DNA from: an uncultured Gammaproteobacteria bacterium
Lineage (GTDB): Bacteria; Patescibacteriota; Microgenomatia; Levybacterales; GWA1-39-11
Reading direction: 5' to 3'
Length of the DNA stretch: 64,000 nucleotides
Assembly: GCA_964640435.1 (NCBI GenBank)
Contig: CAZXFJ010000001.1
Location: 64,542 to 128,541 of the forward strand
Below, one piece after another: positions 4,550 through 47,239 of the stretch (position 1 is the stretch's first letter; every line of letters begins with the position of its first letter). The notes under the pieces are model-generated. The model searched no databases. It worked only from the letters and a program-made list of their open reading frames with translations, and had not been told where the DNA came from. Made by a program: the position numbers and the translations under genes.

Positions 4550-4991
4550 TAAACATGTTAAACAAGGCGGTGGATCAGCATTTTTCTGGGGTCTTGTTAT
4601 AGGAGCACTTCTTGCCACATTACTCACTACAAAAAACGGTAGAAAAATTCTTCATGAGCTAGTAGATATTGTTTTATCAATGATGGAAGATTTTGCTGAG
4701 AAGAAAAAGACTTCAAATGTCCCCGTTGTGACTGCTGTTAAGAATACAGTAAACAATATAAAGGAAGATATTCGTGAAGAGGTAGAATTTAAGAAAGCTG
4801 TAGATGAAATAAATTCTGAAATTGCTGAAGATGAGCAACCTGGTAGTGAAGATGATTTGGAGGTCAGTTCGACTCCGGTACAAGTTATTGCGGAAGAGGA
4901 AGAAATTGTAGTTGATGAAAAAGAGGAATCCCCTAAAAGTAACGGTCATGCTAAAAAGAGACTCTTCCATGGTATAAGAAAGGCTAAATAG
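4539..4991 (+). CDS. YtxH-like membrane-anchored protein with acidic C-terminus
   Basis: GGGSAFFWGLVIGALLATLLTTKNGRK matches the YtxH signature (GxxxGxxxGxLxAPKSG). Overlaps the preceding ORF by 11 nt. Confidence 0.45.
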   Translation: MQNNKHVKQGGGSAFFWGLVIGALLATLLTTKNGRKILHELVDIVLSMMEDFAEKKKTSNVPVVTAVKNTVNNIKEDIREEVEFKKAVDEINSEIAEDEQPGSEDDLEVSSTPVQVIAEEEEIVVDEKEESPKSNGHAKKRLFHGIRKAK

Positions 4992-5048
4992 CCTCAATTT
5001 TGCCCCCCAAATTGGTGTTCTAGCCTTAAAATTGATATAATATGCATT

Positions 5049-6071
5049 ATGAAAAAGGTTGTTGTTATTGGTGGTGGAACAGGGACATATACGGCCCTGA
5101 CTGCCCTTCGTGATAAAAAATATGATCTTACAGCCATTTTGACAATGGTAGATGATGGTGGATCAAATAAGGTGCTTCGTGATGAATTTGGTCTCCTTCC
5201 AACATCTGGTGTAAGGCTTGCTATGGTTGCGCTATCAAGTAAGCCATCACTTCTTCGTGAACTATTTTTATACCGTTACCACAAGGGAACAGGAATCTCT
5301 GGAATGACCTTTGGTAATCTGTTCTTAGCAGCAGTTACTGATATTTTAGGATCTCAAGAAAAAGCAATTGAGCACACATCGGATATATTAAAAGTTAAAG
5401 GAAAAATACTACCAATTTCTCATGAAGATGTTCGCTTGGTCGCGCACTACGAGGATGGATCTGAAGTTGTTGGAGAGCATAATATTGATGAACCAACTCA
5501 CGATGGAAAAATGAAGATTACAAAACTTTTTACACGTCCAGAAGCTACAATAACTGAACATGCAAAGCAAGCAATTTTAGATGCAGATACTATAGTTTTA
5601 GGTCCCGGCGACTTTTATACAAATTCTGTAGCAAATCTTGTTATCGGAGGAGTAGTTGATGCATTGATGGAATCAAAGGCACAACTCATTTTTGTTATGA
5701 ATCTTATGACTAAATATGGTGAGACATATGATTATTCTGCATCTCAATATATTGAAGATCTTGCAAAATATATTCCACTATCAAGAATAAACGTGCTTTT
5801 AATTAATAATGATATGAAGTTACCTGTGGAAACTCTCGAAAAATATAAAGAGGAGTTTTCAATTCCTGTTGTAGATGATCTAGATAGTATGGATTTGCCA
5901 GAGGGCGTAAGAGTAGTTCGTGCACCTATTTTATTTAGAAAAGAAATAGAACCTGAAAAAGGAGATTTAGTAAAGCGAAGTATGATAAGACATGATCCAA
6001 GAAGACTTGGTAAAATATTAACAGAACTTATAGGAACTGATGAGTCTTCAGAGCCTGTTAACAATGGATAA
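5049..6071 (+). CDS. YvcK/CofD-family protein (UPF0052, gluconeogenesis factor / 2-phospho-L-lactate transferase-like)
   Basis: VVIGGGTG...LTAILTMVDDGGS motifs diagnostic of the CofD/YvcK family. Confidence 0.7.
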   Translation: MKKVVVIGGGTGTYTALTALRDKKYDLTAILTMVDDGGSNKVLRDEFGLLPTSGVRLAMVALSSKPSLLRELFLYRYHKGTGISGMTFGNLFLAAVTDILGSQEKAIEHTSDILKVKGKILPISHEDVRLVAHYEDGSEVVGEHNIDEPTHDGKMKITKLFTRPEATITEHAKQAILDADTIVLGPGDFYTNSVANLVIGGVVDALMESKAQLIFVMNLMTKYGETYDYSASQYIEDLAKYIPLSRINVLLINNDMKLPVETLEKYKEEFSIPVVDDLDSMDLPEGVRVVRAPILFRKEIEPEKGDLVKRSMIRHDPRRLGKILTELIGTDESSEPVNNG

Positions 6072-6684
6072 GAAAACAAAAGCTGAAAAAATTGCAAGAG
6101 AACTTAAGAAGCTATTTCCCAATCCTCATACACCATTAAATCACAGTAATCCCTGGGAGCTTTATGTTGCGGTAGCATTATCTGCTCAACAAACTGATGT
6201 TGGTGTAAATAAAGTTACGGAAACACTTTTCAAAAAATATAAAAATTTAGATGATTATCGTAAAGCATCACTTGAAGAATTTGATGGTGATATAAAAAGC
6301 ATAAATTTCCATAAAGGTAAATCAAAAGCGATTAAGGCGGCTGCTGATATTATTGCGGAAAAATACAATGGTAAAATGCCACAAGAGATGGATCAGTTAT
6401 TGGAGCTACCTTTTATTGGAAGAAAGACGGCAAATGTAATTTTGCAGGAAGCATTTGGGAAATCCGAGGGTATAGTGGTTGATACTCATGTAAAGAGACT
6501 TACTAATCTATTTGGGTTAACTACAAATTCCGACCCAGTAAAAATAGAAAAAGATTTGATGGAGGAAGTTGCGCAAAAGGATTGGAGAGAATTTGGATTA
6601 GGTCTTATATATTATGGACGAACGTATTGTAAAGCCTCATGTAAGCACACAGATTGTCCTCTTCGCGAGTATATATCTAAATAA
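6064..6684 (+). CDS. nth: Endonuclease III-like HhH-GPD DNA glycosylase. Start at MDKKTK overlaps the upstream stop (ATGGATAA).
   Basis: HhH-GPD core (LPFIGRKTANVILQEAFG). C-terminal Cys cluster CKASCKHTDC. The atypical Cys spacing is noted. Confidence 0.7.
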   Translation: MDKKTKAEKIARELKKLFPNPHTPLNHSNPWELYVAVALSAQQTDVGVNKVTETLFKKYKNLDDYRKASLEEFDGDIKSINFHKGKSKAIKAAADIIAEKYNGKMPQEMDQLLELPFIGRKTANVILQEAFGKSEGIVVDTHVKRLTNLFGLTTNSDPVKIEKDLMEEVAQKDWREFGLGLIYYGRTYCKASCKHTDCPLREYISK

Positions 6685-9600
6685 TTATCTTCTTGTTTCT
6701 CTTTTTGTGTTAAACCACATGAAGTAAACTGTTGGAATGAAGAACAACATGATTATTCCTGAGAATGTAAGTCCTGCAATAATTGCTCCTCCTAGTCCTC
6801 GCCATAATGGATCAGTAACAGTAATTGGAATAAGACCCAAGATTGTTGCAAGAGATGTTAATGCAATTGGTTCAAGTCGAGATGCTGAAGCTTCGGAAAT
6901 TGCTTCAATAAGACTCATATCATGTTTTTGGTTTTCAACGATTTTATCAACAACTAGAATAGAATTTTTAACAACAATTCCAAAAAGAGCCAGTACTCCA
7001 ATAAGTGCTGGGAATGAAAGTGGTGTTCCGGTTAGTGCAAAAATTACAAATACACCAGAGATTGAAAGTGGAATAACAAGCATAACAATTAATGCTCGTC
7101 TGAATGATGAGAACTGAATAACCATTGTGACAATAATTAAGAAGAATGAAAGAATCATCGCTGTGAGAATTGAGTTTATTGAGTTTTGATTTTCTTCATT
7201 TGCTCCTCCAGTTTTCCATTCATACCCTGATGGCAAGTGAAGATCACTATCAGCAAACTTGATTAATTCTGTATTAATTGTTTGTGAATTAAATCCTCGT
7301 CGAGCAGCAGCAGAAATTGAAATAGTTCTCTTACCACCTTCACGAGTTATTTGTGTTGGATTGTTCTCAAGCTTTAATGTTCCCAGTGAGGCAAGAGGAA
7401 TATTTCCTGTTGGTGTAGGAATATTAATTTGGTCAAGAGTATTTACAAAAGATGTTTCATTATAAAGCCTTAGCGTAATATCTTTTTCTTCAGTTTCACC
7501 TGGGAATTTATTACTTTCAAATTTAATCCCTGATGCGTACAGCCTTAGAAGACCACCTAATTGATCAACGGATATATTATTATCAGCAATAATTTCACTA
7601 TTTGGAACAAATACTATCTTACTTGTTCCTGGTTGAATTGATTTCTCAGCGTTTGCTATACCAGGGTTTTTTTCAAGATATGCAACGACTTCATCTGCTT
7701 TCTTATTGAGAACAGACAAGTCATCTCCTACAAGTTTTATTTGAACATCTGCTCCAACTGGGGGACCACCAGATTGTTCAATAACCTGAAACTTTCCTGC
7801 TTGGTAATTGCTGAATTTGTTGCGAAGCTTTTCTGCTATTTCAAAAGATTCTTCTCTTTGACCTTCCTTTTTAAGATTCAATGAATATAGAAGACTATTT
7901 GAGTCACCTTGAGTTCCTCCACTTTCAGTATTAATTGAAGTTCCGAGATCAAGACTTACGAAATTAACACCGGGAGTTTTGCTAATTTCCGAAAGCATTC
8001 TTAAACCTTCTTTTTTAGTTACATCAACATTGGTTCCAGATGCAAAATCAATACTTGCATAAACTATATCTGAATCAGTTTTTGGAAAGAATTCATTTTT
8101 AACAAATCCAAATGGTAAAAGAAGGAATGAAAATATAGAAAAGATTACAACCATGGTCACAACCATTCTTCGGTTTTGTCGACTTGAAATAACTTTTTGA
8201 ATTAAGTCCTTGTATGCATGATTAATTCTGTCGAAGCTTATAACACCTTCTTCATAATTTCTCGATCTCAATGAATTTAATGTACGACCAAGTCTTGTTT
8301 TTGATGAGAAGCGTTTAGTTTGCATGTTTCTTACCCCTATGATCACTTTCTCTCTTAGTATGTATACGACCATAAGTAATGAAATCAGCGCTACTATTTC
8401 AAAAGCGAATAAGTTACCTCTCGGAATAACCGAGAATAATATTCCTGCCATCATTAAGACAAATATGATTTGGAAAAGTATTTTTACTCTTCCAGGAACC
8501 TGAGGTCTTAGTAAGATAACGACGAGCGGAAGTGTGATAAACATTGCAACAAAGAAAGAAGAAATAAGCGCAGTTGACACAACTATTGGAATTGATTTAA
8601 TAAATTCACCAATAATTCCACTTGCTAAAAGTAATGGTAAAAATGCCCAAACAGTAGTAATTGTTGTTGTTGCAACTGGAGTTAAAAAGTCACGCCATAC
8701 GAGAAGTCCTGTTTCAATCGGTGTAAATCTTTTCGTCTTGTAGTAAAAGCTCATTGCAGAAATAACAACAACTGTATCGTCCACTAAGAGTCCTAGGGAT
8801 AAGATAAGAGAGAAAAGAGAAAGAAAATTAAGCGTAATTCCTGTTTGCTGCATTATTATAAAGGTTATTAAGAAAGATAATGGTGCAGAAAGAGAGGATA
8901 CAACCGCCTGTCTTGGTCCAAGGAAAATAAATAGAACAAGTACGACTAAGAATACAGTGATAAGAAAATCACGTGTAAGCTCAGAAAATTGATGATCAAT
9001 TTCTTCAGAAGTGTTTACTAAATTAACGGCTTCAAACCTGCCTTCGCCACGAGCAGCAATTTCATCATCTACAGTTTTATGAGCAGCACTTACAGCTCGG
9101 TTTATGTTAAATGTTTTAACACGTAAGACATTAAAAGTAACAGATCTTTGTGATTCTCTTCCAGGGTATGCGATAAATGATTGATTCTGTCCAGGTTTTG
9201 GACTTTCATAGATCTGAGCTATTTCAGACAATGAAACATTTTGCCCATTTAAATTTACTCTTGTTTTTCTTATGTCATCAATTGTTGAAATTGCAGGGTC
9301 GATTGTTAGTGAAAAGTTGCTATTTTCTGTTCTAACAGACCCTGCTGGAAAACTCTTAAATCCACTAGTTACTGCAGATGATAACTGGAATGGATTGACT
9401 CCATATGAAGAGTAAACCTCAGGGTTAACTATTATTTTTATCTCTGTTTCCTCAAGACCAGCGACTCCAACTGAATCAATTTCTGGTAAATCTTCTAGTT
9501 TTTGTTTTAGATGGGTTGCAAATTTGAAAAGACTTCCATCATCAGCAGTTGTTGTTAGAACAAAAGTCCAAACTGGAGAATTCTCAAAGTCTAATTTTAT

Positions 9601-10041
9601 GACACGAGGAGAAATTACATCATCGGGTAAGTCAGTTATTGAGTCAACCGCAGATTGTACATCAGATTTTGCTTTATCAACATCAACTCCTGATTCAAAT
9701 TCAATTGTTACAGTTGAAGCATTTTCAACAGAATTTGAAGTTACAGTTTTTACTTTATCAAGACTGTTGACAGCATCTTCAATAGGTATAGTTACAAGCG
9801 ACTCAACGTCAGCTGGTCCTGCTCCTGGTAAAACAGTAGAAACCAATACATATGGTAGGTTAACTTGGGGATTTAGATCTCGAGGTAGAGTAAAAAACGC
9901 GTTAAGACCAACACCTATTACTAAAAGGAGTAATAGAACTACTAGTCTTGGATTCTTCAGATAAGAAGCTACTTTTGAATTAGCAAGCTTTTGGTCGAAT
10001 CTGAGGAATTTTAAAAATTCATCTTTTCGTGGTTTTGGCAT
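6685..10041 (-). CDS. RND-family efflux transporter (AcrB/MMPL-like), 1118 aa
   Basis: 12-TM RND topology with two large extracytoplasmic loops and a conserved C-terminal TM bundle. Immediately downstream (minus strand) of an adaptor gene. Confidence 0.8.
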   Translation of the reverse strand: MPKPRKDEFLKFLRFDQKLANSKVASYLKNPRLVVLLLLLVIGVGLNAFFTLPRDLNPQVNLPYVLVSTVLPGAGPADVESLVTIPIEDAVNSLDKVKTVTSNSVENASTVTIEFESGVDVDKAKSDVQSAVDSITDLPDDVISPRVIKLDFENSPVWTFVLTTTADDGSLFKFATHLKQKLEDLPEIDSVGVAGLEETEIKIIVNPEVYSSYGVNPFQLSSAVTSGFKSFPAGSVRTENSNFSLTIDPAISTIDDIRKTRVNLNGQNVSLSEIAQIYESPKPGQNQSFIAYPGRESQRSVTFNVLRVKTFNINRAVSAAHKTVDDEIAARGEGRFEAVNLVNTSEEIDHQFSELTRDFLITVFLVVLVLFIFLGPRQAVVSSLSAPLSFLITFIIMQQTGITLNFLSLFSLILSLGLLVDDTVVVISAMSFYYKTKRFTPIETGLLVWRDFLTPVATTTITTVWAFLPLLLASGIIGEFIKSIPIVVSTALISSFFVAMFITLPLVVILLRPQVPGRVKILFQIIFVLMMAGILFSVIPRGNLFAFEIVALISLLMVVYILREKVIIGVRNMQTKRFSSKTRLGRTLNSLRSRNYEEGVISFDRINHAYKDLIQKVISSRQNRRMVVTMVVIFSIFSFLLLPFGFVKNEFFPKTDSDIVYASIDFASGTNVDVTKKEGLRMLSEISKTPGVNFVSLDLGTSINTESGGTQGDSNSLLYSLNLKKEGQREESFEIAEKLRNKFSNYQAGKFQVIEQSGGPPVGADVQIKLVGDDLSVLNKKADEVVAYLEKNPGIANAEKSIQPGTSKIVFVPNSEIIADNNISVDQLGGLLRLYASGIKFESNKFPGETEEKDITLRLYNETSFVNTLDQINIPTPTGNIPLASLGTLKLENNPTQITREGGKRTISISAAARRGFNSQTINTELIKFADSDLHLPSGYEWKTGGANEENQNSINSILTAMILSFFLIIVTMVIQFSSFRRALIVMLVIPLSISGVFVIFALTGTPLSFPALIGVLALFGIVVKNSILVVDKIVENQKHDMSLIEAISEASASRLEPIALTSLATILGLIPITVTDPLWRGLGGAIIAGLTFSGIIMLFFIPTVYFMWFNTKRETRR

Positions 10042-10042
10042 A

Positions 10043-11551
10043 TTAGTTACTTATTTTTACTTTTTCGCCTTCTATGACATTTCTATCCAAAATTACTGAA
10101 TCCTGTGAACCAAGTCCAGCAGTAATAGCTACGTTTGATCCAACTATATCTCCTAGTTCGACTTTTTTAGCAACAACTTTTCCATTTTTAGCAACGTATG
10201 TATAAGCTCCCTCTTGGGTTTGGAAAACAATATCTATAGGAAGGTATGGAATAGTTGATACTGAATCAGCGTTTCCTATTGGTATTTCTACCTTTATATA
10301 CTGACCATCTGTTACTGATGAATAGAGCGTATCAGGGAGAGCATAAATAACTGAATTTAAGGGTCCGTCAGTTGCTTCATTTGATACAAATTCAGGCATA
10401 ATATTGTACTTTTTACCTTTTATATAAAAAGTGCTTTCTTCAATTCGTGAAACTTTACCAGCTGTTTCGTAGGGAACTGTAACGGTAGCTGTTGCTGCTT
10501 GATTATTGCTCGATATTGTTACAAGTGGAGTACCTGGATTTACGGCTTGGCCATAGCTTACATGTACTTTTTCTACAACCCCATCAAATGGTGCTGCTGG
10601 ATACATTGTTGCTTCGGAAATCTGAGCAAGCTGAAGTTGAAGCTTGCTTATTTCAAGACCCATTCTTAAAGCTTTTTCTTGTACATCAAGCTGTTTAAGT
10701 GTTAAGTCGTGAGCTAAATCAGCAAGCCTCGTAGGAGGATTATTTGTATCTGCCGCAAATCTTGCTTGGCGTTGAGCTGCTTCAAGTTGTGCTTGTCCTG
10801 CTCTATATTGAGCAATTTGTTGTCTTAATCCAAGAATTTGATCAGGAGCTCCTCCACTGGATTCAAGAGCTGATAAACTTGTTTCAAGACTTACAATAAT
10901 TGAAGCATTTAAATCAATAACTCGTCTTGTATCTGTAATTGATTGTTCAGTAATTTGTCTTTGTTCATCAGCGCTCTCTCTTGATTGGTCAGCGATTTCT
11001 CTTTGGTTTCCTATTATTCCCTTCTGAGTATCAAAAGTATCTTTTGTATTCATGTACTGAGTTGCAGCAATCTCCCGAGATACACTTAATGCATTTCCTC
11101 CTTGGTAATTACTTGAAAGACTTACTAAGTTTTGACCGCGTGTAACAACCTGTCCTTCTACAACATTAATTCCTGAAACAATACCAGGAGTCTGTGCAAC
11201 TATTTGAATAACACCCTTTTTATCAATCTTTGCACTGAAAGTCGCACGAGGAGCTTTTCCAATTTGGTAAATAGCAACTTCTTTTGCGGCAGAGGCAGTA
11301 TTTGCTTCTTTTGGTTTTGGAGTAAGAATAGTATTTAAAATCATCACTAAAAGAAGTATGACAAGAGCAATGAAAAAACTCGCCATTGGGCGACGCTTAA
11401 TGTATTTAGTTGTTTTTGTTGTTAGACTTTTTCGTCTTTCTCCAAATCTAAGATCAGAAAACTTTGAAGATATTGAGTTTTTAACACGTGAAAAAAAAGT
11501 ACCTTTAGTACCACGAGAGGAGCTTCTTGATCGATTAATTCTTCTGGCCAT
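10043..11551 (-). CDS. RND efflux periplasmic adaptor (HlyD/membrane-fusion protein) with long coiled coil. True start may be internal at the MASFFIALV... TM anchor.
   Basis: TM anchor, long Q/A-rich coiled coil, and C-terminal beta-barrel/MP domains. Followed 1 nt later by the RND pump gene on the same strand. Confidence 0.7.
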   Translation of the reverse strand: MARRINRSRSSSRGTKGTFFSRVKNSISSKFSDLRFGERRKSLTTKTTKYIKRRPMASFFIALVILLLVMILNTILTPKPKEANTASAAKEVAIYQIGKAPRATFSAKIDKKGVIQIVAQTPGIVSGINVVEGQVVTRGQNLVSLSSNYQGGNALSVSREIAATQYMNTKDTFDTQKGIIGNQREIADQSRESADEQRQITEQSITDTRRVIDLNASIIVSLETSLSALESSGGAPDQILGLRQQIAQYRAGQAQLEAAQRQARFAADTNNPPTRLADLAHDLTLKQLDVQEKALRMGLEISKLQLQLAQISEATMYPAAPFDGVVEKVHVSYGQAVNPGTPLVTISSNNQAATATVTVPYETAGKVSRIEESTFYIKGKKYNIMPEFVSNEATDGPLNSVIYALPDTLYSSVTDGQYIKVEIPIGNADSVSTIPYLPIDIVFQTQEGAYTYVAKNGKVVAKKVELGDIVGSNVAITAGLGSQDSVILDRNVIEGEKVKISN

Positions 11552-42763: not shown

Positions 42764-42812
42764 AAATTTTAAATGTAAAGTTGACTTGACATTTAAAATT
42801 TCATCTGATAAT
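42764..42812 (+). promoter_or_regulatory. Promoter of the XRE operon, overlapped by a perfect 13-nt inverted repeat (AAATTTTAAATGT-N12-ACATTTAAAATTT) that flanks/overlaps the -35 (TTGACTTGACA); -10 TGATAAT
   Basis: Inverted-repeat arms at 42764-42776 and 42789-42801. -35-like TTGACT/TTGACA at 42781-42791. GATAAT at 42807-42812. Confidence 0.5.
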
Positions 42813-42824
42813 GTTTAACCATGT

Positions 42825-43025
42825 ATGGCAGAGGCAGTAAAAAATCGTGTTCAGGAGTATCGATCATTAAAAAAAATTACTCAAGAAGACTTAGCAAAAT
42901 CAGTTGGGGTAGCAAGACAGACAATAATTGCCATTGAGAAAGGAAATTATACTCCATCTGTTTTATTAGCTATTAAGATAGCAAAAGAATTAAAGGTAGA
43001 GCTTAAGGAATTATTTTACATATGA
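42825..43025 (+). CDS. XRE-family HTH transcriptional regulator (66 aa, YozG-like)
   Basis: HTH_3/HTH_26 pattern [39 protein letters not shown]. Confidence 0.8.
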
Positions 43026-43387
43026 AAGAAATACATGCAGGTGAACTACTTATATCAGTAATTTTAATACTTCTTTTAATTTTCTTCTTAAATCCATTTC
43101 ATATCCTAATGCCGGATCCAATGCTTACTCTTATGATTGTTATTCTGCTAGTTTTATTTGGTATTTTTGCAGGTTTTGTTTTTAAAGAGAGCGTTCATGA
43201 TGAGAGAGAAAGTCTACATCGTTTTATTGCCGCTCGTTTTGCTTATCTAGTTGGCACAGGAGTACTTGTTATTGGGATAATTATTCAAAGCCTTTCACAC
43301 AGTGTCGACATTTTTTTAGTTGTAACTTTAATACTAATGATACTGGCAAAGATATTTGGTTTTTTGTATGCAAAGAATAAACATTAA
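43022..43387 (+). CDS. DUF2178-like small polytopic membrane protein, overlapping and cotranscribed with the XRE regulator
   Basis: Four hydrophobic helices. 4-nt start/stop overlap (ATGA). This pairing is typical of XRE-DUF2178 modules. Confidence 0.5.
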
Positions 43388-43402
43388 AGGAGGTGAGACA
43401 AA

Positions 43403-43669
43403 ATGAATAAAACAACAATGTGGATTATAGTTATTGTTGCATTAATTGTAGGATTTGTGGGTGGCTTTTTTATTGCAAATAGCCAAGCTTCTAAATCTAT
43501 GATGATGGTTAAAGAAGATATGCAAAAACAAATCAATGATGCAAAAATGGAAAATGAAAAAATGATGGAGGAGAATAGTGCGGGAGACGATAAGATGATG
43601 CAGGATGATTCAGGTTCCATGGAGCAGAGCGATACAATGATGCAAGATGACAAGATGATGGAGAAATAA
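43403..43669 (+). CDS. Methionine-rich (about 18% Met) small bitopic protein with MMQDD/KMMEE repeats
   Basis: Strong SD (AAAGGAGGTG) 8 nt upstream. N-terminal TM. C-terminal acidic Met-rich tail (SMMMV, KMMEEN, DDKMMQDD, DTMMQDDKMMEK). Confidence 0.6.
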   Translation: MNKTTMWIIVIVALIVGFVGGFFIANSQASKSMMMVKEDMQKQINDAKMENEKMMEENSAGDDKMMQDDSGSMEQSDTMMQDDKMMEK

Positions 43670-43720
43670 TTTCTCTAAAAGCCGGCCGGCTTAATTATCA
43701 TTGTATGTTTTAATATAAAT

Positions 43721-45457
43721 ATGATCACTTTATTAATATTTGCTTTTTTATCAGGACTTGTAACTATAGCTGCGCCATGTATTTGGCCTTTACTTCCGAT
43801 TGTTTTATCAAGTAGTGCTCTTAACGGGGACCATATGCGTCCTTTAGGTCTCACTCTTGGAATAATGACAAGTTTTGGTATTTTGACACTTTCAATTTCC
43901 TATCTTGTTGCCATATTTAAATTTGATGCTAATCTATTAAGAATTTTTTCAGTAGTAATTTTAGTGTTCTTAGGTCTCACACTTTTATTGCCACCACTTT
44001 CAAGAATTGTTGAATCATTTGTCTCACGATTTGCTGGAAAAATAGGTCCTCAAAACGTGCAAGGAGGATTTGTGCCTGGTTTTATAACAGGTCTTGCTTT
44101 AGGTGTAGTATGGACACCATGTGCTGGTCCAATACTTGCAACAATTGCCACACTTTCTGCAACCAAAGCTGTCGGATTGCAAATAGTTTTGGTAACAGCA
44201 GTTTATTTAATCGGCGTTGCAATACCTTTGTTTATATTTTCATATGCTGGTCAAAAATTTATTCAAAAAAGCAGATTTTTTAACAAATATACGGGTATCG
44301 TGCAGAGAGTATTTGGAGCGATAATAATTGCAACAGCTCTACTAATCTTTACTAACTATGACAAGGTTTTATCTGCCAATCTTTTAAATGCATTCCCATC
44401 GTATACAAGTTTTATCAATAATCTTGAAGGAAATAATCAAGTCTCAAAAGAACTAAACAAGATAAAAGGAAGTGAAGATAATTCGCAAAGTAATAATTCC
44501 TCACTGTTTAATGAAAATTATCCAGCACCAGAGCTTACAGGAATCACAAATTGGATTAACACTCCAGATGACAAACCTTTAACACTTAAGGATTTGAAGG
44601 GGAAAGTAGTACTCGTCGATTTTTGGACATATACATGTATTAATTGTATTCGGACATTGCCTCATGTTACTGCTTGGTATGACAAGTATAATAAAGACGG
44701 ATTTGTCACTATTGGGATTCATACACCTGAATTTGAGTTTGAGAAGAGTACAAATAATGTTGAGGCGGCAATAAAGCAATTTAATATTCATTATCCAGTT
44801 GCACAAGATAATAATTACGCTACATGGACCGCATTTCAAAATCAGTATTGGCCTGCAGAGTATTTAATAGATAAAAATGGAAACGTCAGACGTACTCATT
44901 TTGGAGAAGGAGAGTACGAGGAGATGGAGGAGGCAATTAGAATCTTATTGAAAGAAAAGGGAGCATCACTTTCAGCGGGACTTGTCGAAATGCCAGATGA
45001 TACTCCTGCTCAGCGAATTTCTCCTGAGACATATATAGGATCATCTCGTATGGAATATTATTACCCAAATGGAAGAGTTAATAACGGCTCATATACAAAT
45101 TTAAAACTACAACCACAGATTCCTGTAAATTCATTTGATTTTGGAGGTAGCTGGATAGTTAGCGACGAATATTCTCAAACAGGAAATAATGCATCCTTGG
45201 AATATAAATTTTATGCCAATAAAGTTTTCTTAGTATTAAAGCCAGCCAATAGTAATGCTGGAAAAGTTAGAGTTTTTCTTGATGGGAAAGTAGTGAGTAT
45301 TCTAAATAAGGGAAGGGATGTTAATAGTGATGGTTACATTCCAATTACTGAAGACAGATTATATGAATTAATAAACCTTCAAGGAAAATATGGCGAACAT
45401 TTGTTAAGACTCGAATTTAGTAATGGAATTCAAGTCTTTGCATTTACATTCGGATAA
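43721..45457 (+). CDS. DipZ-like thiol-disulfide oxidoreductase: CcdA/DsbD transmembrane electron-transfer domain fused to a TlpA-like thioredoxin domain and a C-terminal beta-rich domain
   Basis: TM Cys pair (AAPCIWPL, WTPCAGPIL). Thioredoxin CxxC (WTYTCINCIR). About 150-aa C-terminal extension. Confidence 0.75.
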   Translation: MITLLIFAFLSGLVTIAAPCIWPLLPIVLSSSALNGDHMRPLGLTLGIMTSFGILTLSISYLVAIFKFDANLLRIFSVVILVFLGLTLLLPPLSRIVESFVSRFAGKIGPQNVQGGFVPGFITGLALGVVWTPCAGPILATIATLSATKAVGLQIVLVTAVYLIGVAIPLFIFSYAGQKFIQKSRFFNKYTGIVQRVFGAIIIATALLIFTNYDKVLSANLLNAFPSYTSFINNLEGNNQVSKELNKIKGSEDNSQSNNSSLFNENYPAPELTGITNWINTPDDKPLTLKDLKGKVVLVDFWTYTCINCIRTLPHVTAWYDKYNKDGFVTIGIHTPEFEFEKSTNNVEAAIKQFNIHYPVAQDNNYATWTAFQNQYWPAEYLIDKNGNVRRTHFGEGEYEEMEEAIRILLKEKGASLSAGLVEMPDDTPAQRISPETYIGSSRMEYYYPNGRVNNGSYTNLKLQPQIPVNSFDFGGSWIVSDEYSQTGNNASLEYKFYANKVFLVLKPANSNAGKVRVFLDGKVVSILNKGRDVNSDGYIPITEDRLYELINLQGKYGEHLLRLEFSNGIQVFAFTFG

Positions 45458-45850
45458 TTAGTCCTCTGTAATCGTTGCGGGAATTTCTTTTCCTTCAGGT
45501 ATAAAACGTATGGAGAGTGAGTTAACACAGTGACGAGTATCCTTTTCGGTTAAATGTTCACCTCTAAAAACATGTCCTAAATGTGCTCCGCAATTTCCGC
45601 ATTCTATCTCAGTTCTTTCTCCATCGGGATCTGGAAGCTCGCGTACTGCATCAGGAAATGTGTCATCAAATGCTGGCCATCCACAATGTGCATCATATTT
45701 TGCCTTTGCAGAAAACAGAGGTAGATTGCAGCGACGACAAATAAAAGTTCCTGGGGCATAAAAGTCATCGTATTCTCCTGTAAATGGAGATTCCGTACCT
45801 TTATCTTCAATTATTCTTTTTTCTTCATCAGTCAACTTATTGTATTCCAT
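45458..45850 (-). CDS. msrB: Peptide-methionine (R)-S-oxide reductase
   Basis: Zn CxxC pairs (CRRCNLPLF, CGNCGAHLGHVF), catalytic RHCVNS, and GWPAF motif. Convergent with the DipZ gene with 0-nt spacing. Confidence 0.85.
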   Translation of the reverse strand: MEYNKLTDEEKRIIEDKGTESPFTGEYDDFYAPGTFICRRCNLPLFSAKAKYDAHCGWPAFDDTFPDAVRELPDPDGERTEIECGNCGAHLGHVFRGEHLTEKDTRHCVNSLSIRFIPEGKEIPATITED

Positions 45851-45935: not shown

Positions 45936-46547
45936 ATGGTGCAAAGTGGGATACTTTTCGATAAGGCTAGAAACAGATCAATAATGCCATTAGGTGGTGA
46001 TCAAGAGCCCAATTGGAGATTGTATGATGACGTACCAATAGCACATCGAGAACCTACGCCTGAACAGAAAAGAATGATTGACGATAGTTATCAAGAAGCA
46101 TTAAAAGAGGTAATAAAAGATCAAGCAAAGCAGAGAGAAAGATTTAATAGTCTAGTAAAGCGCTCAAGTCAGACACTATATAAGATAAAAACTGTTTTTC
46201 CCTATAATTTTTTTCCTACAACAGTATCTATTGATCCACAAAAGGTAACACTGCAAATAAAAAACTTTTTCTCTTCTTCTGAAATTAGAAGTATTCATAT
46301 AAAAAACATCTCACATGTATTTGTAGATACAGGTCCATTCTTTGCTACACTTGTACTAATTGATCAAAGTATTTTGGATGATAATGTTGGAAAAATTCAA
46401 ATTCCATATTTAAAAAAACAGGAAGCACTTAAAGCTCGCAGAATAATTCAAGGACTTATTGTTGCACATAAGGAAGAAATTGATATTACAAAGTTAAGCG
46501 ATGACAACGTTGTCAGAAAACTTGAGGAAATTGGGCGCATGCAGTAG
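45936..46547 (+). CDS. Hypothetical protein (203 aa)
   Basis: ORF only. No recognisable motif. Confidence 0.35.
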   Translation: MVQSGILFDKARNRSIMPLGGDQEPNWRLYDDVPIAHREPTPEQKRMIDDSYQEALKEVIKDQAKQRERFNSLVKRSSQTLYKIKTVFPYNFFPTTVSIDPQKVTLQIKNFFSSSEIRSIHIKNISHVFVDTGPFFATLVLIDQSILDDNVGKIQIPYLKKQEALKARRIIQGLIVAHKEEIDITKLSDDNVVRKLEEIGRMQ

Positions 46548-46564: not shown

Positions 46565-47239
46565 GTGAAATATCCAAAGAAAAAAGTAGCAGTAGCGATC
46601 TTTGCACACCCAGATGACGAAGCATTTGGTCCAGCTGGAACAATTCATAAATTAACTCGTGATTATGACGTTTATCTTCTCTGCGCAACAAAAGGTGAGA
46701 TAGGTGAAACAAGTATTGAAAACAAAAAGCCTCTTCACGAGATTCGTGCTGATGAGCTTCGAAAATCTGCAAAGATATTAGGAGTAAAAAAAGTATATTT
46801 TTTAGGTTTTATAGATGGGACACTTTCAAATAGTCTTTATCATAAATTAGCAGCAGAAATTGAAAAGCATTTGAAAAAATTAATGCCTGAACTTATTTTA
46901 ACTATGAATCCAAATGGAGGTTCAGGGCATATTGATCATATTGTTGTTTCCATGGTTTCGTCATTTGTTTTTGAACGATTATCATTTATTAAAAAGATTA
47001 TGTATACCGCTCAAACAAAAGAGGTAACAGATAAATCTGCAAAATATCCCTACTTTATATATAGACCCCAAGGTTTACCTCGAGAACAAATTGATGAAAT
47101 TGTCGATGTTTCAGATGTTTGGGAGGTAAAGCAGGCTGCTATGAAAACTCACGAGTCACAAAAACATGATTATGATAGAATAAATAAAATGCGGGAGGGC
47201 TTACCTCAAGAAGAGCACTTTTTAGTTAAAAATAGGTAG
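46565..47239 (+). CDS. PIG-L/LmbE-family N-acetylglucosaminyl deacetylase
   Basis: AHPDDE motif near the N-terminus and a HIDH metal-ligand motif (GGSGHIDH). Confidence 0.7.
   Translation: MKYPKKKVAVAIFAHPDDEAFGPAGTIHKLTRDYDVYLLCATKGEIGETSIENKKPLHEIRADELRKSAKILGVKKVYFLGFIDGTLSNSLYHKLAAEIEKHLKKLMPELILTMNPNGGSGHIDHIVVSMVSSFVFERLSFIKKIMYTAQTKEVTDKSAKYPYFIYRPQGLPREQIDEIVDVSDVWEVKQAAMKTHESQKHDYDRINKMREGLPQEEHFLVKNR

Follow-up and report, generated by a model that had tools for sequence, protein, structure and literature searches.

Members of the Patescibacteria have very small genomes and only one membrane, and classical redox metabolism is almost absent from them; they nevertheless retain a cassette in which a small methionine-rich membrane peptide stands next to a transmembrane electron conduit, and the locus described here raises the question of what such a cassette is for. 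We examined it in a window of 64,000 nucleotides (nt), by which we mean the whole stretch analysed (positions 64,542 to 128,541, forward strand, of contig CAZXFJ010000001.1, assembly GCA_964640435.1; coordinates below are those of the window). A sequence-only reading of this DNA had earlier joined an 88-amino-acid (aa) Met-rich peptide, a DipZ-type protein and a convergent methionine-R-sulfoxide reductase (MsrB) into an oxidant-sink and methionine-repair module. We found that the unit is larger than peptide, DipZ and MsrB, the Met-rich gene being third in a cassette that starts at about 42774. Gene identities, conservation of the peptide family, cassette architecture, an operator pattern and an enrichment of methionine sulfoxide reductase (Msr) genes beside DipZ are established here. 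We tentatively read the locus as one self-regulated envelope redox cassette of a Patescibacteria (Levybacteria-like) genome, in which the tail of the peptide would form a tethered pool of sacrificial methionines.

The gene for the Met-rich bitopic peptide (43403-43669, + strand) encodes 88 aa (MNKTTMWIIVIVALIVGFVGGFFIANSQASKSMMMVKEDMQKQINDAKMENEKMMEENSAGDDKMMQDDSGSMEQSDTMMQDDKMMEK), 16 of which are methionine (18.2%), and contains the motifs KMMEE at residue 53, MMQDD at 65 and 79, and KMMEK at 84. Its Shine-Dalgarno sequence is complete (AAGGAGGTGA, 43387-43396, + strand), with 9 nt between GGAGG and the ATG, and the earlier description of an ORF (open reading frame) of about 18% Met with MMQDD/KMMEE units and a strong ribosome-binding site was thereby confirmed. 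The only hydrophobic segment covers residues 6-24, and the tail that follows it holds 14 methionines (22%) and 24 charged D/E/K residues (38%) among 64, with neither Cys nor His. With the 2.07% Met typical of the window's long ORFs as background, this enrichment had a binomial P of 4.8e-11, and none of the window's other ORFs of 40 aa or more (325 in all) was as dense in Met. AlphaFold2 returned a helix at 3-66, a short second helix at 79-86 and a low-confidence tail, with a predicted local distance difference test (pLDDT) score of 66; combined with the sequence, the model points to an anchor (6-24), a charged helix (about 25-60) and a disordered MM-acidic tail ending in KMMEK. No signal-peptidase site was spotted by eye in the peptide, whose hydrophobic helix runs on into the following helix, and an uncleaved membrane anchor is predicted. 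MM doublets, and not a five-residue repeat, dominate the spacing of methionines in the tail. The sequence-only reading had likened the peptide to the MXKDX/MrpX proteins; membership of that family was rejected because no NCBIfam or Pfam repeat-family match was obtained for the peptide at E < 0.01.

Conservation of the ORF was examined by homology searches. A word-index search with the peptide returned only itself, and phmmer against 1.84 billion representatives retrieved 20 further homologous clusters (E = 3e-14 to 8e-4), none of which has a name in any source. Judged by sequence similarity, the Met-rich ORF is a member of a real family, from Patescibacteria. Sixteen of the 20 clusters are stand-alone proteins of 70-96 aa that share an MNKxxMW start, one transmembrane (TM) helix, a charged helix of the form ME.YK..QKQxDDAKMK.DQLMK and a tail rich in Met, in which PEPSGxMMKK repeats are often present and which in many cases ends in MM(K/Q/E)(K/R); these stand-alone members contain no Cys, and His occurs only as one residue in one of the 16 (P0127). 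In the other four clusters, the same N-terminal module is fused to the Pfam domain Lipoprotein_15 (PF03640), a "secreted repeat"; such fusions occur in L001/L002 (5414-5937), P0137 and P0141 (L numbers designate related loci and P numbers further homologs). Because the same module carries a secreted domain in these homologs, we argue that the tail of the window's peptide would lie outside the membrane. The Lipoprotein_15 domain of the fusions has an invariant SNC-x3-C..WPP motif; no PDB relative of the fusion protein was found, its AlphaFold2 model reached a pLDDT of only 40, and we found no literature on the function of Lipoprotein_15 (PF03640/COG4315).

The cassette became apparent when nine loci with stand-alone peptides were compared (the window, L007, L011, L092, L093, L094, L095, L096 and L097). 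The Met-rich gene lies directly behind a pair of genes, a helix-turn-helix (HTH) regulator and a membrane protein of about 121 aa, in 9/9 of these loci, at a gap of 14-50 nt, and wherever DNA downstream of it is visible (9/9) an anchored thioredoxin and/or DipZ comes next, so that the earlier proposal of a link between the Met-rich gene and its reductant supply was upheld. Flanks outside the cassette vary (upstream of it in L011, for example, are a gene for ribosomal protein S18 and protease genes), and the cassette therefore moves as a unit. In the reverse test, which started from the 121-aa protein, each of three more distant homologs preceded an anchored thioredoxin, CcdA and a thioredoxin-Thioredoxin_10 protein, that is, a split DipZ. 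As the HTH/membrane pair stood ahead of CcdA, DipZ or thioredoxin genes in every context examined, it looks like a dedicated regulator of the reductase operon in Patescibacteria. What occupies the slot between the pair and DipZ varies: the Met-rich peptide alone, a Met-rich-Lipoprotein_15 fusion (L001, L002), an anchored thioredoxin (L003, L006, L014, L015, L029), peptide plus thioredoxin (L093), or nothing (L020). The contig of L007 (CAZILC010000011.1) is labelled "uncultured Gammaproteobacteria" yet carries a Patescibacteria-type HTH/membrane/Met-rich/thioredoxin cassette at 40% GC and may be mis-binned.

In the window, the first gene of the pair encodes an Xre-family HTH transcription factor of 66 aa (42825-43025, + strand; Pfam HTH_3, E = 4e-14), and its stop overlaps by 4 nt (ATGA) the start of the second (43022-43387, + strand), which encodes a 121-aa protein, perhaps distantly DUF2178-like, with four hydrophobic segments, an invariable companion of the HTH protein and a candidate envelope sensor. 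The latter has no Pfam match above threshold in the window; its 48 homologs are all from Patescibacteria, and a few of them carry PF09946, others a faint match to it. When the homolog sequences were read, a predicted outward loop, NP(F/L)xxxMP, and a predicted cytoplasmic loop, (H)DERExLHR, were seen to be conserved, and these are possible sites of sensing and of contact with the HTH protein, respectively.

Upstream of the pair is a near-palindromic, 18-bp putative operator, TGTAAAGT-TG-ACTTGACA (42774-42791), which overlaps a TTGACA -35 box. The palindrome occurs once in the window (0.00 expected in shuffles), and the pattern TGTAAAGT-N2-ACTTKACA was found ahead of the HTH gene, at a distance of about 35-80 nt, in 12 related loci that are independent; L008-L010 carry it too, being copies of the window's own organism that are not counted among the 12, and the matching loci beyond the window number 14 with these copies. 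Elsewhere among the first 98 loci the pattern appeared only in L007, where a further copy stands directly behind the thioredoxin gene, and it was missing from loci without the HTH/membrane pair. The palindrome is presumed to be the Xre operator and the operon to be autoregulated, and our confidence is high that the Xre protein controls the cassette from there. A promoter-like sequence read by eye on the + strand consists of TTGACA (42786-42791), a 17-nt spacer and TAATGT (42809-42814), with GATAAT (42807-42812) as an alternative -10 box; L001, L002, L011 and L094 share the -35 box, and a consensus promoter scan did not report this cassette promoter.

Between the Met-rich gene and dipZ is a GC-rich hairpin, AAGCCGGCCGGCTT (43679-43692, + strand), whose GCCGGCCGGC occurs once in the window against 0.08 expected, and the fold of this intergenic region had z = -2.55. 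A stable hairpin is present at the equivalent position in 6/7 loci (the window, L001, L002, L007, L011 and L092; z = -2.55 to -4.6), its position being kept among loci and its sequence not; L093 has a similar GGCCGGCCGGC element. Since none of the hairpins after the Met-rich gene has a good U-tract, they are more likely to be attenuators (partial terminators) or RNA stabilisers than full terminators.

The next gene, dipZ (43721-45457, + strand), has no Shine-Dalgarno sequence of its own and encodes a canonical 578-aa fusion of CcdA, a TlpA/ResA-like (TlpA/YkuV-type) thioredoxin and Thioredoxin_10. Pfam placed DsbD_TM at 4-210, Thioredoxin_8/Redoxin/AhpC-TSA at 281-398 and Thioredoxin_10 (PF17991) at 434-578, the last over its full length (1-142, E = 1.4e-30), and structural matches were obtained to CcdA (5vkv, residues 5-228) and to Mycobacterium tuberculosis DipZ (2hyx/5cyy, residues 261-577, E = 4e-70). 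The protein has four Cys in total, C20 (AAPCIWPL), C134 (WTPCAGPIL), and C306 and C309 (CINC); across 17 homologs there is no variation at P19, C20, W22, P23, P133, C134, G136 and P137, C306-I-N-C309 is invariant in the homolog alignment, and the Thioredoxin_10 domain has zero Cys. In a positive-inside analysis the protein had six TM helices with the K/R-rich loops 91-120 and 174-191 in the cytoplasm, and the thioredoxin and beta domains are predicted to lie outside the membrane. We have high confidence that DipZ moves electrons from the cytoplasm to its surface CxxC domain. More than 7,900 homologs are known under the NCBI name "cytochrome c biogenesis protein DipZ". Patescibacteria are not known to have c-type cytochromes, and for that reason the label is probably a misnomer in this host.

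The msrB gene (45458-45850, - strand) encodes a 130-aa MsrB (SelR E = 8.6e-40; NF004036 score 187.4 bits, cutoff 179) with the zinc CxxC pairs C38/C41 and C84/C87 and the catalytic C108 in RHCVNS. The stops of dipZ and msrB abut as TAATTA (45455-45460), so the two convergent transcripts must overlap. These data agree with the sequence-only reading in its account of the DipZ-type fusion (the motifs around the four Cys, the extra beta domain and, by the loop analysis, its outside position) and of an msrB lying tail-to-tail with zero spacing. They do not agree with it in making this MsrB the repair partner of the peptide: no signal peptide, TM helix or other hydrophobic segment was found in the window's MsrB, which is accordingly placed in the cytoplasm and cannot repair an exported tail, and, being encoded on the opposite strand, it is not co-transcribed with the cassette.

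Linkage between DipZ and Msr was nevertheless borne out when loci were gathered from DipZ and not from the peptide (83 loci, DipZ 36-73% identical to the window's, 564 kb of flanks). An Msr gene was found in 9/83, always within 700 nt past the dipZ 3' end and nowhere else, against 0.4-1.7 expected. Since the window is related to L001, L002 and L004, the linkage events are not all independent. They are of two kinds. Co-directional exported Msr genes follow DipZ in L002, L018, L025, L038 and L068, and a convergent cytoplasmic MsrB or MsrA lies next to dipZ, as it does in the window, in L001, L002, L004, L050 and L063; a convergent cytoplasmic MsrA is also present in L097. The convergent cytoplasmic msr recurs even where identity between the DipZ proteins is no more than 41-73% and different genes lie in between, and its position may reflect a shared stress island. 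Beyond the window's msrB are a 203-aa ORF without Pfam or NCBIfam match (45936-46547, + strand), conserved beside msrB in L001 and L002, then a PIG-L/LmbE-type deacetylase gene (46565-47239) and tuf.

Met-rich sequences recur around DipZ and its thioredoxins beyond the peptide family itself. The 564 kb of DipZ flanks contained seven credible exported Met-rich ORFs, six of them within 90 nt of DipZ, and those adjoining DipZ in L019 and L025 are not homologous to the window's family. Anchored thioredoxins with Met-rich linkers between anchor and domain, encoded in the peptide's slot upstream of DipZ or CcdA, were found in L006, L029, L068, L099, L100 and L101 (for example DAMMKKESEIMEKETMEKEGGAMMKDESMMK in L101). 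In L002, the Met-rich-Lipoprotein_15 protein, a DipZ 71% identical to the window's and an exported MsrB (7768-8331) are encoded consecutively.

Some of these loci have further features. The Met-rich ORF of L019 (75-374), 25 nt upstream of DipZ, encodes a signal peptide and DDAMMNKDD-type repeats and falls into neither a Pfam nor an NCBIfam family. In L038 (7737-9100), MsrB and MsrA, both exported, also have Met-rich linkers. In L024, a gene for a membrane-anchored cupredoxin of the plastocyanin/azurin family (7599-8189, - strand) converges with DipZ at 59 nt. L025 is a non-Patescibacteria contig of 45% GC in which an apparent operon (4935-10182) encodes an ECF (extracytoplasmic function) sigma factor, an anti-sigma factor, DipZ, a DUF6799 Met-rich exported protein, an MsrAB lipoprotein and an exported peroxiredoxin. 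This gene run looks like a complete envelope antioxidant module around DipZ, and we found no description of such an arrangement in the literature.

The tentative reading as a sacrificial-methionine cassette is motivated by the MrpX-like composition of the peptide, its strong ribosome-binding site, the Met-rich proteins and linkers recurring around DipZ and thioredoxins, and the enrichment of Msr beside DipZ. On this model, the Xre-type repressor would bind the palindrome on its own promoter, and its four-TM partner would probably relay a signal from the envelope. The peptide, favoured by a full Shine-Dalgarno sequence and by a hairpin after its stop, would be abundantly translated and anchored at its N-terminus, which fits because a monoderm cell would presumably need an anchor to retain it. 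Its disordered tail would display MM doublets among acidic and basic residues, and could quench HOCl and peroxide-type oxidants at the membrane surface, beside the oxidant-sensitive thiolates of the thioredoxin. In that role it would parallel, in a cell with one membrane, MrpX, which is free in the periplasm. DipZ would draw electrons from thioredoxin in the cytoplasm and hand them on, by way of CcdA, to the CxxC thioredoxin domain that it carries at the surface. Recycling of the tail would require an exported Msr fed by DipZ, such as relatives encode right after dipZ and the window does not; the adjacent cytoplasmic msrB would share the neighbourhood and perhaps a stress regulon, and act on a different substrate. 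Both the scavenging of oxidants by the peptide and the flow of electrons to Msr are inferred. The oxidant-sink and repair idea of the sequence-only reading thus stands in part: the trio of DipZ with a Met-rich protein and an MsrAB, both exported, does occur in L025, and the window has no exported Msr.

Several observations weigh against this reading. The window's sole Msr is cytoplasmic and convergent, a syntenic neighbour outside the transcript, and no exported Msr, MsrP or peroxiredoxin was found in the 64-kb window. The peptide is linked more constantly to the regulator pair than to any Msr, and its occurrence is patchy among close relatives, which makes it an accessory component. The side of the membrane on which the tail lies is also contested, as the charges flanking the anchor give no clear answer (+1 before it, a net charge of 0 to +2 after it) and every protein to which the peptide has a weak profile match (RNase Y in its N-terminal region, ZapG, ATP synthase b) has its helix in the cytoplasm. 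A cytoplasmic tail repaired by the adjacent MsrB was rated unlikely all the same, since the Lipoprotein_15 fusions outweigh the ambiguous charges and the weak matches. The extracellular tail proposed earlier is therefore retained with the fusions on its side and the charge rule and these matches against it, and its orientation is inferred from the domain fusions and not from the charge rule. Finally, the linker of the L024 cupredoxin is of the same MM-acidic type (KMMEE/TMMDD/SMMEE) as the peptide.

That last observation leads to a copper buffer, the likeliest of the rivals and one that we nonetheless think unlikely. The tail would here bind Cu(I) or Ag(I) at the surface and either shield the CxxC thiols of DipZ and its clients or supply cuproproteins. 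DipZ would then maintain cysteines that handle copper in the reduced state, in the manner of TlpA with Sco and of ScsB/ScsC in copper tolerance. Besides the cupredoxin 59 nt from DipZ with its shared linker, the buffer is favoured by the invariant C-x3-C of the Lipoprotein_15 domain fused to family members, by the well-documented Met-rich regions of copper proteins, and by the case of CusF/MsrPQ in E. coli, where oxidation of Met is tied to stress from copper (PMC9302797). The Met-rich segments that handle Cu(I) in CopA/PcoA, CueO, CusF, CopI and Ctr1 are likewise extracytoplasmic, disordered and dense in Met; they differ in relying on the Mets motifs MxM, MxxM and MxxxM, often with His. In our Met-spacing analysis these motifs were strongly depleted (6, 0 and 6 occurrences, respectively, vs 24.5, 20.2 and 17.2 in shuffles), whereas MM was enriched (58 vs 29.5). 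The window's peptide has no His, and the stand-alone members are without Cys and, save for the one residue in P0127, without His. No copper genes were recognised in the cassette, and no CopA, CopZ, CsoR or Sco among the flanking ORFs that were read or annotated with Pfam, although no search for these families was run over the flanks of the 100 loci. Met-rich contexts linked to Msr also outnumber those linked to copper by four (L002, L025, L038 and L068) to one.

A second rival takes the constancy of the regulator pair as its starting point. The peptide would be a redox sensor, the third part of the HTH/membrane unit, and oxidation of its methionines would alter the contact with the four-TM protein, free the Xre repressor and raise read-through into dipZ. 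In accord with this, the peptide gene always follows the pair (9/9 loci) while the gene after it varies (DipZ, thioredoxin plus DipZ, or the split system), a stable hairpin stands between it and the gene for the reductase in 6/7 loci including the window, and the 121-aa protein has a conserved, predicted outward loop (NPFxxLMP), by reading of its homologs. We consider such a sensor rather improbable, because the pair occurs without the peptide in L003, L006, L014, L015, L020, L029, L099, L100 and L101, because a sensor would not need 10-14 methionines or a very strong ribosome-binding site, and because in L001, L002, P0137 and P0141 the Met-rich module is joined to a secreted domain of another kind. 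No better founded, in our judgement, is the proposal that the peptide is a client-binding arm, a flexible and hydrophobic "methionine bristle" with which the reductase would grip unfolded exported proteins, or a leftover anchor and linker of an ancestral Lipoprotein_15 or thioredoxin protein with little function, for, even if the same slot in relatives holds anchor, Met-rich linker and thioredoxin or Lipoprotein_15 and AlphaFold2 shows only a long helix and disorder, at least 16 stand-alone clusters at no more than 50% identity keep a length of 70-96 aa, the QKQxDDAKMK helix motif and a C-terminal MMxK, and neither this conservation nor the strong ribosome-binding site is expected of a decaying remnant.

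Were the sacrificial-methionine reading to hold, with DipZ feeding the oxidant sink, the idea behind MrpX, sacrificial methionines that enzymes recycle, would extend from diderm Proteobacteria to monoderm ultra-small bacteria, the widespread "cytochrome c biogenesis protein DipZ" would gain a role in organisms without cytochromes c, and the locus would define a new small-protein family together with a new regulator/operator pair. The recurring Met-rich linkers on surface thioredoxins suggest, moreover, a general shielding of exposed thiol enzymes. A still bolder generalisation, which we regard as a long shot, is that Met-rich tethers are a general and hitherto undescribed part of extracytoplasmic thiol-reductase systems in Patescibacteria and beyond, whether as stand-alone peptides or as linkers of thioredoxins, Msr or a cupredoxin. 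They might then act together as a methionine-based redox buffer at the surface, with the dedicated Xre/four-TM regulator as its reader; where no exported Msr is seen, as in the window, the thioredoxin module of DipZ might recycle this buffer directly, by an Msr-independent, SOQ1-like reduction of methionine sulfoxide.

SOQ1 of the Arabidopsis thylakoid lumen is among the relatives of DipZ, its thioredoxin-like domain (7djj) matching the DipZ thioredoxin domain at E = 1e-23. It has been proposed that CcdA supplies SOQ1 with electrons and that SOQ1 acts as a reductase on Met sulfoxide in proteins, through a C-terminal Cys pair (bioRxiv 10.1101/2024.11.01.621559). The C-terminal domain of DipZ (434-578), by contrast, is free of Cys and has no match to the SOQ1 C-terminal domain; as only the thioredoxin part matches, we rejected the idea that this domain is itself a SOQ1-like, Cys-based Msr. 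DipZ of M. tuberculosis (Rv2874) has the same three-part architecture with all four redox Cys conserved, and differs in its host and genomic partners.

Two described systems come closest to the logic of the cassette. One is the CcdA-Etrx-MsrAB2 pathway of Streptococcus pneumoniae, with the related MsrAB pathways of S. gordonii, F. nucleatum, H. influenzae and Neisseria (PilB/DsbD) (PMC3914529, PMC7034828, PMC13488963), in which likewise a CcdA/DsbD conduit feeds a surface thioredoxin for extracytoplasmic defence against oxidative stress; the thioredoxin domain of DipZ matches the Etrx structures 4hqz and 2yp6 and the PilB thioredoxin domain 2jzr. Here, in contrast, CcdA and thioredoxin are fused and an extra Thioredoxin_10 domain is present, while the surface Msr acceptor, missing from the window, is encoded directly after DipZ in L002, L018, L025, L038 and L068. 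A Met-rich protein dedicated to the pathway is not part of the described streptococcal systems.

The other is the hypochlorite-scavenging MrpX/YedYZ (MsrPQ) system of Azospira suillum, in which MrpX has 20% Met and 44% charged residues (PMC4436054). As in the peptide tail described here (22% Met, 38% charged), a small exported protein consists mostly of Met and charged residues, and in both cases its gene is clustered with envelope reducing machinery and a dedicated regulator pair. The two proteins have no sequence homology, however. MrpX has a signal peptide and is soluble in the periplasm, whereas the present peptide is predicted to be membrane-anchored; electrons come from the Mo/haem MsrPQ in the one and from the thiol system DipZ in the other; and regulation is by an ECF sigma/anti-sigma pair in the one and by an Xre-HTH protein with a membrane protein in the other. 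MrpX is recycled by an exported Msr encoded alongside, and such an enzyme is lacking in the window and present in L002 and L025.

A 2026 review of sulfoxide reductases names thioredoxin, CcdA and DsbD as partners of Msr (PMC13488963). MrpX is cited there in connection with MsrP alone, and the review is silent on DipZ and on any Met-rich partner of a thiol-based Msr system. In the literature on DipZ with Msr, PF03640, DUF6799/MXKDX, the candidate phyla radiation with Msr, and Met-rich proteins with DsbD, we found no description of the present arrangement. DipZ and MsrB themselves were already known, and what is new is the peptide family, its cassette and the operator. By analogy, the logic of the locus resembles that of MrpX/MsrPQ combined with that of CcdA-Etrx-MsrAB2.

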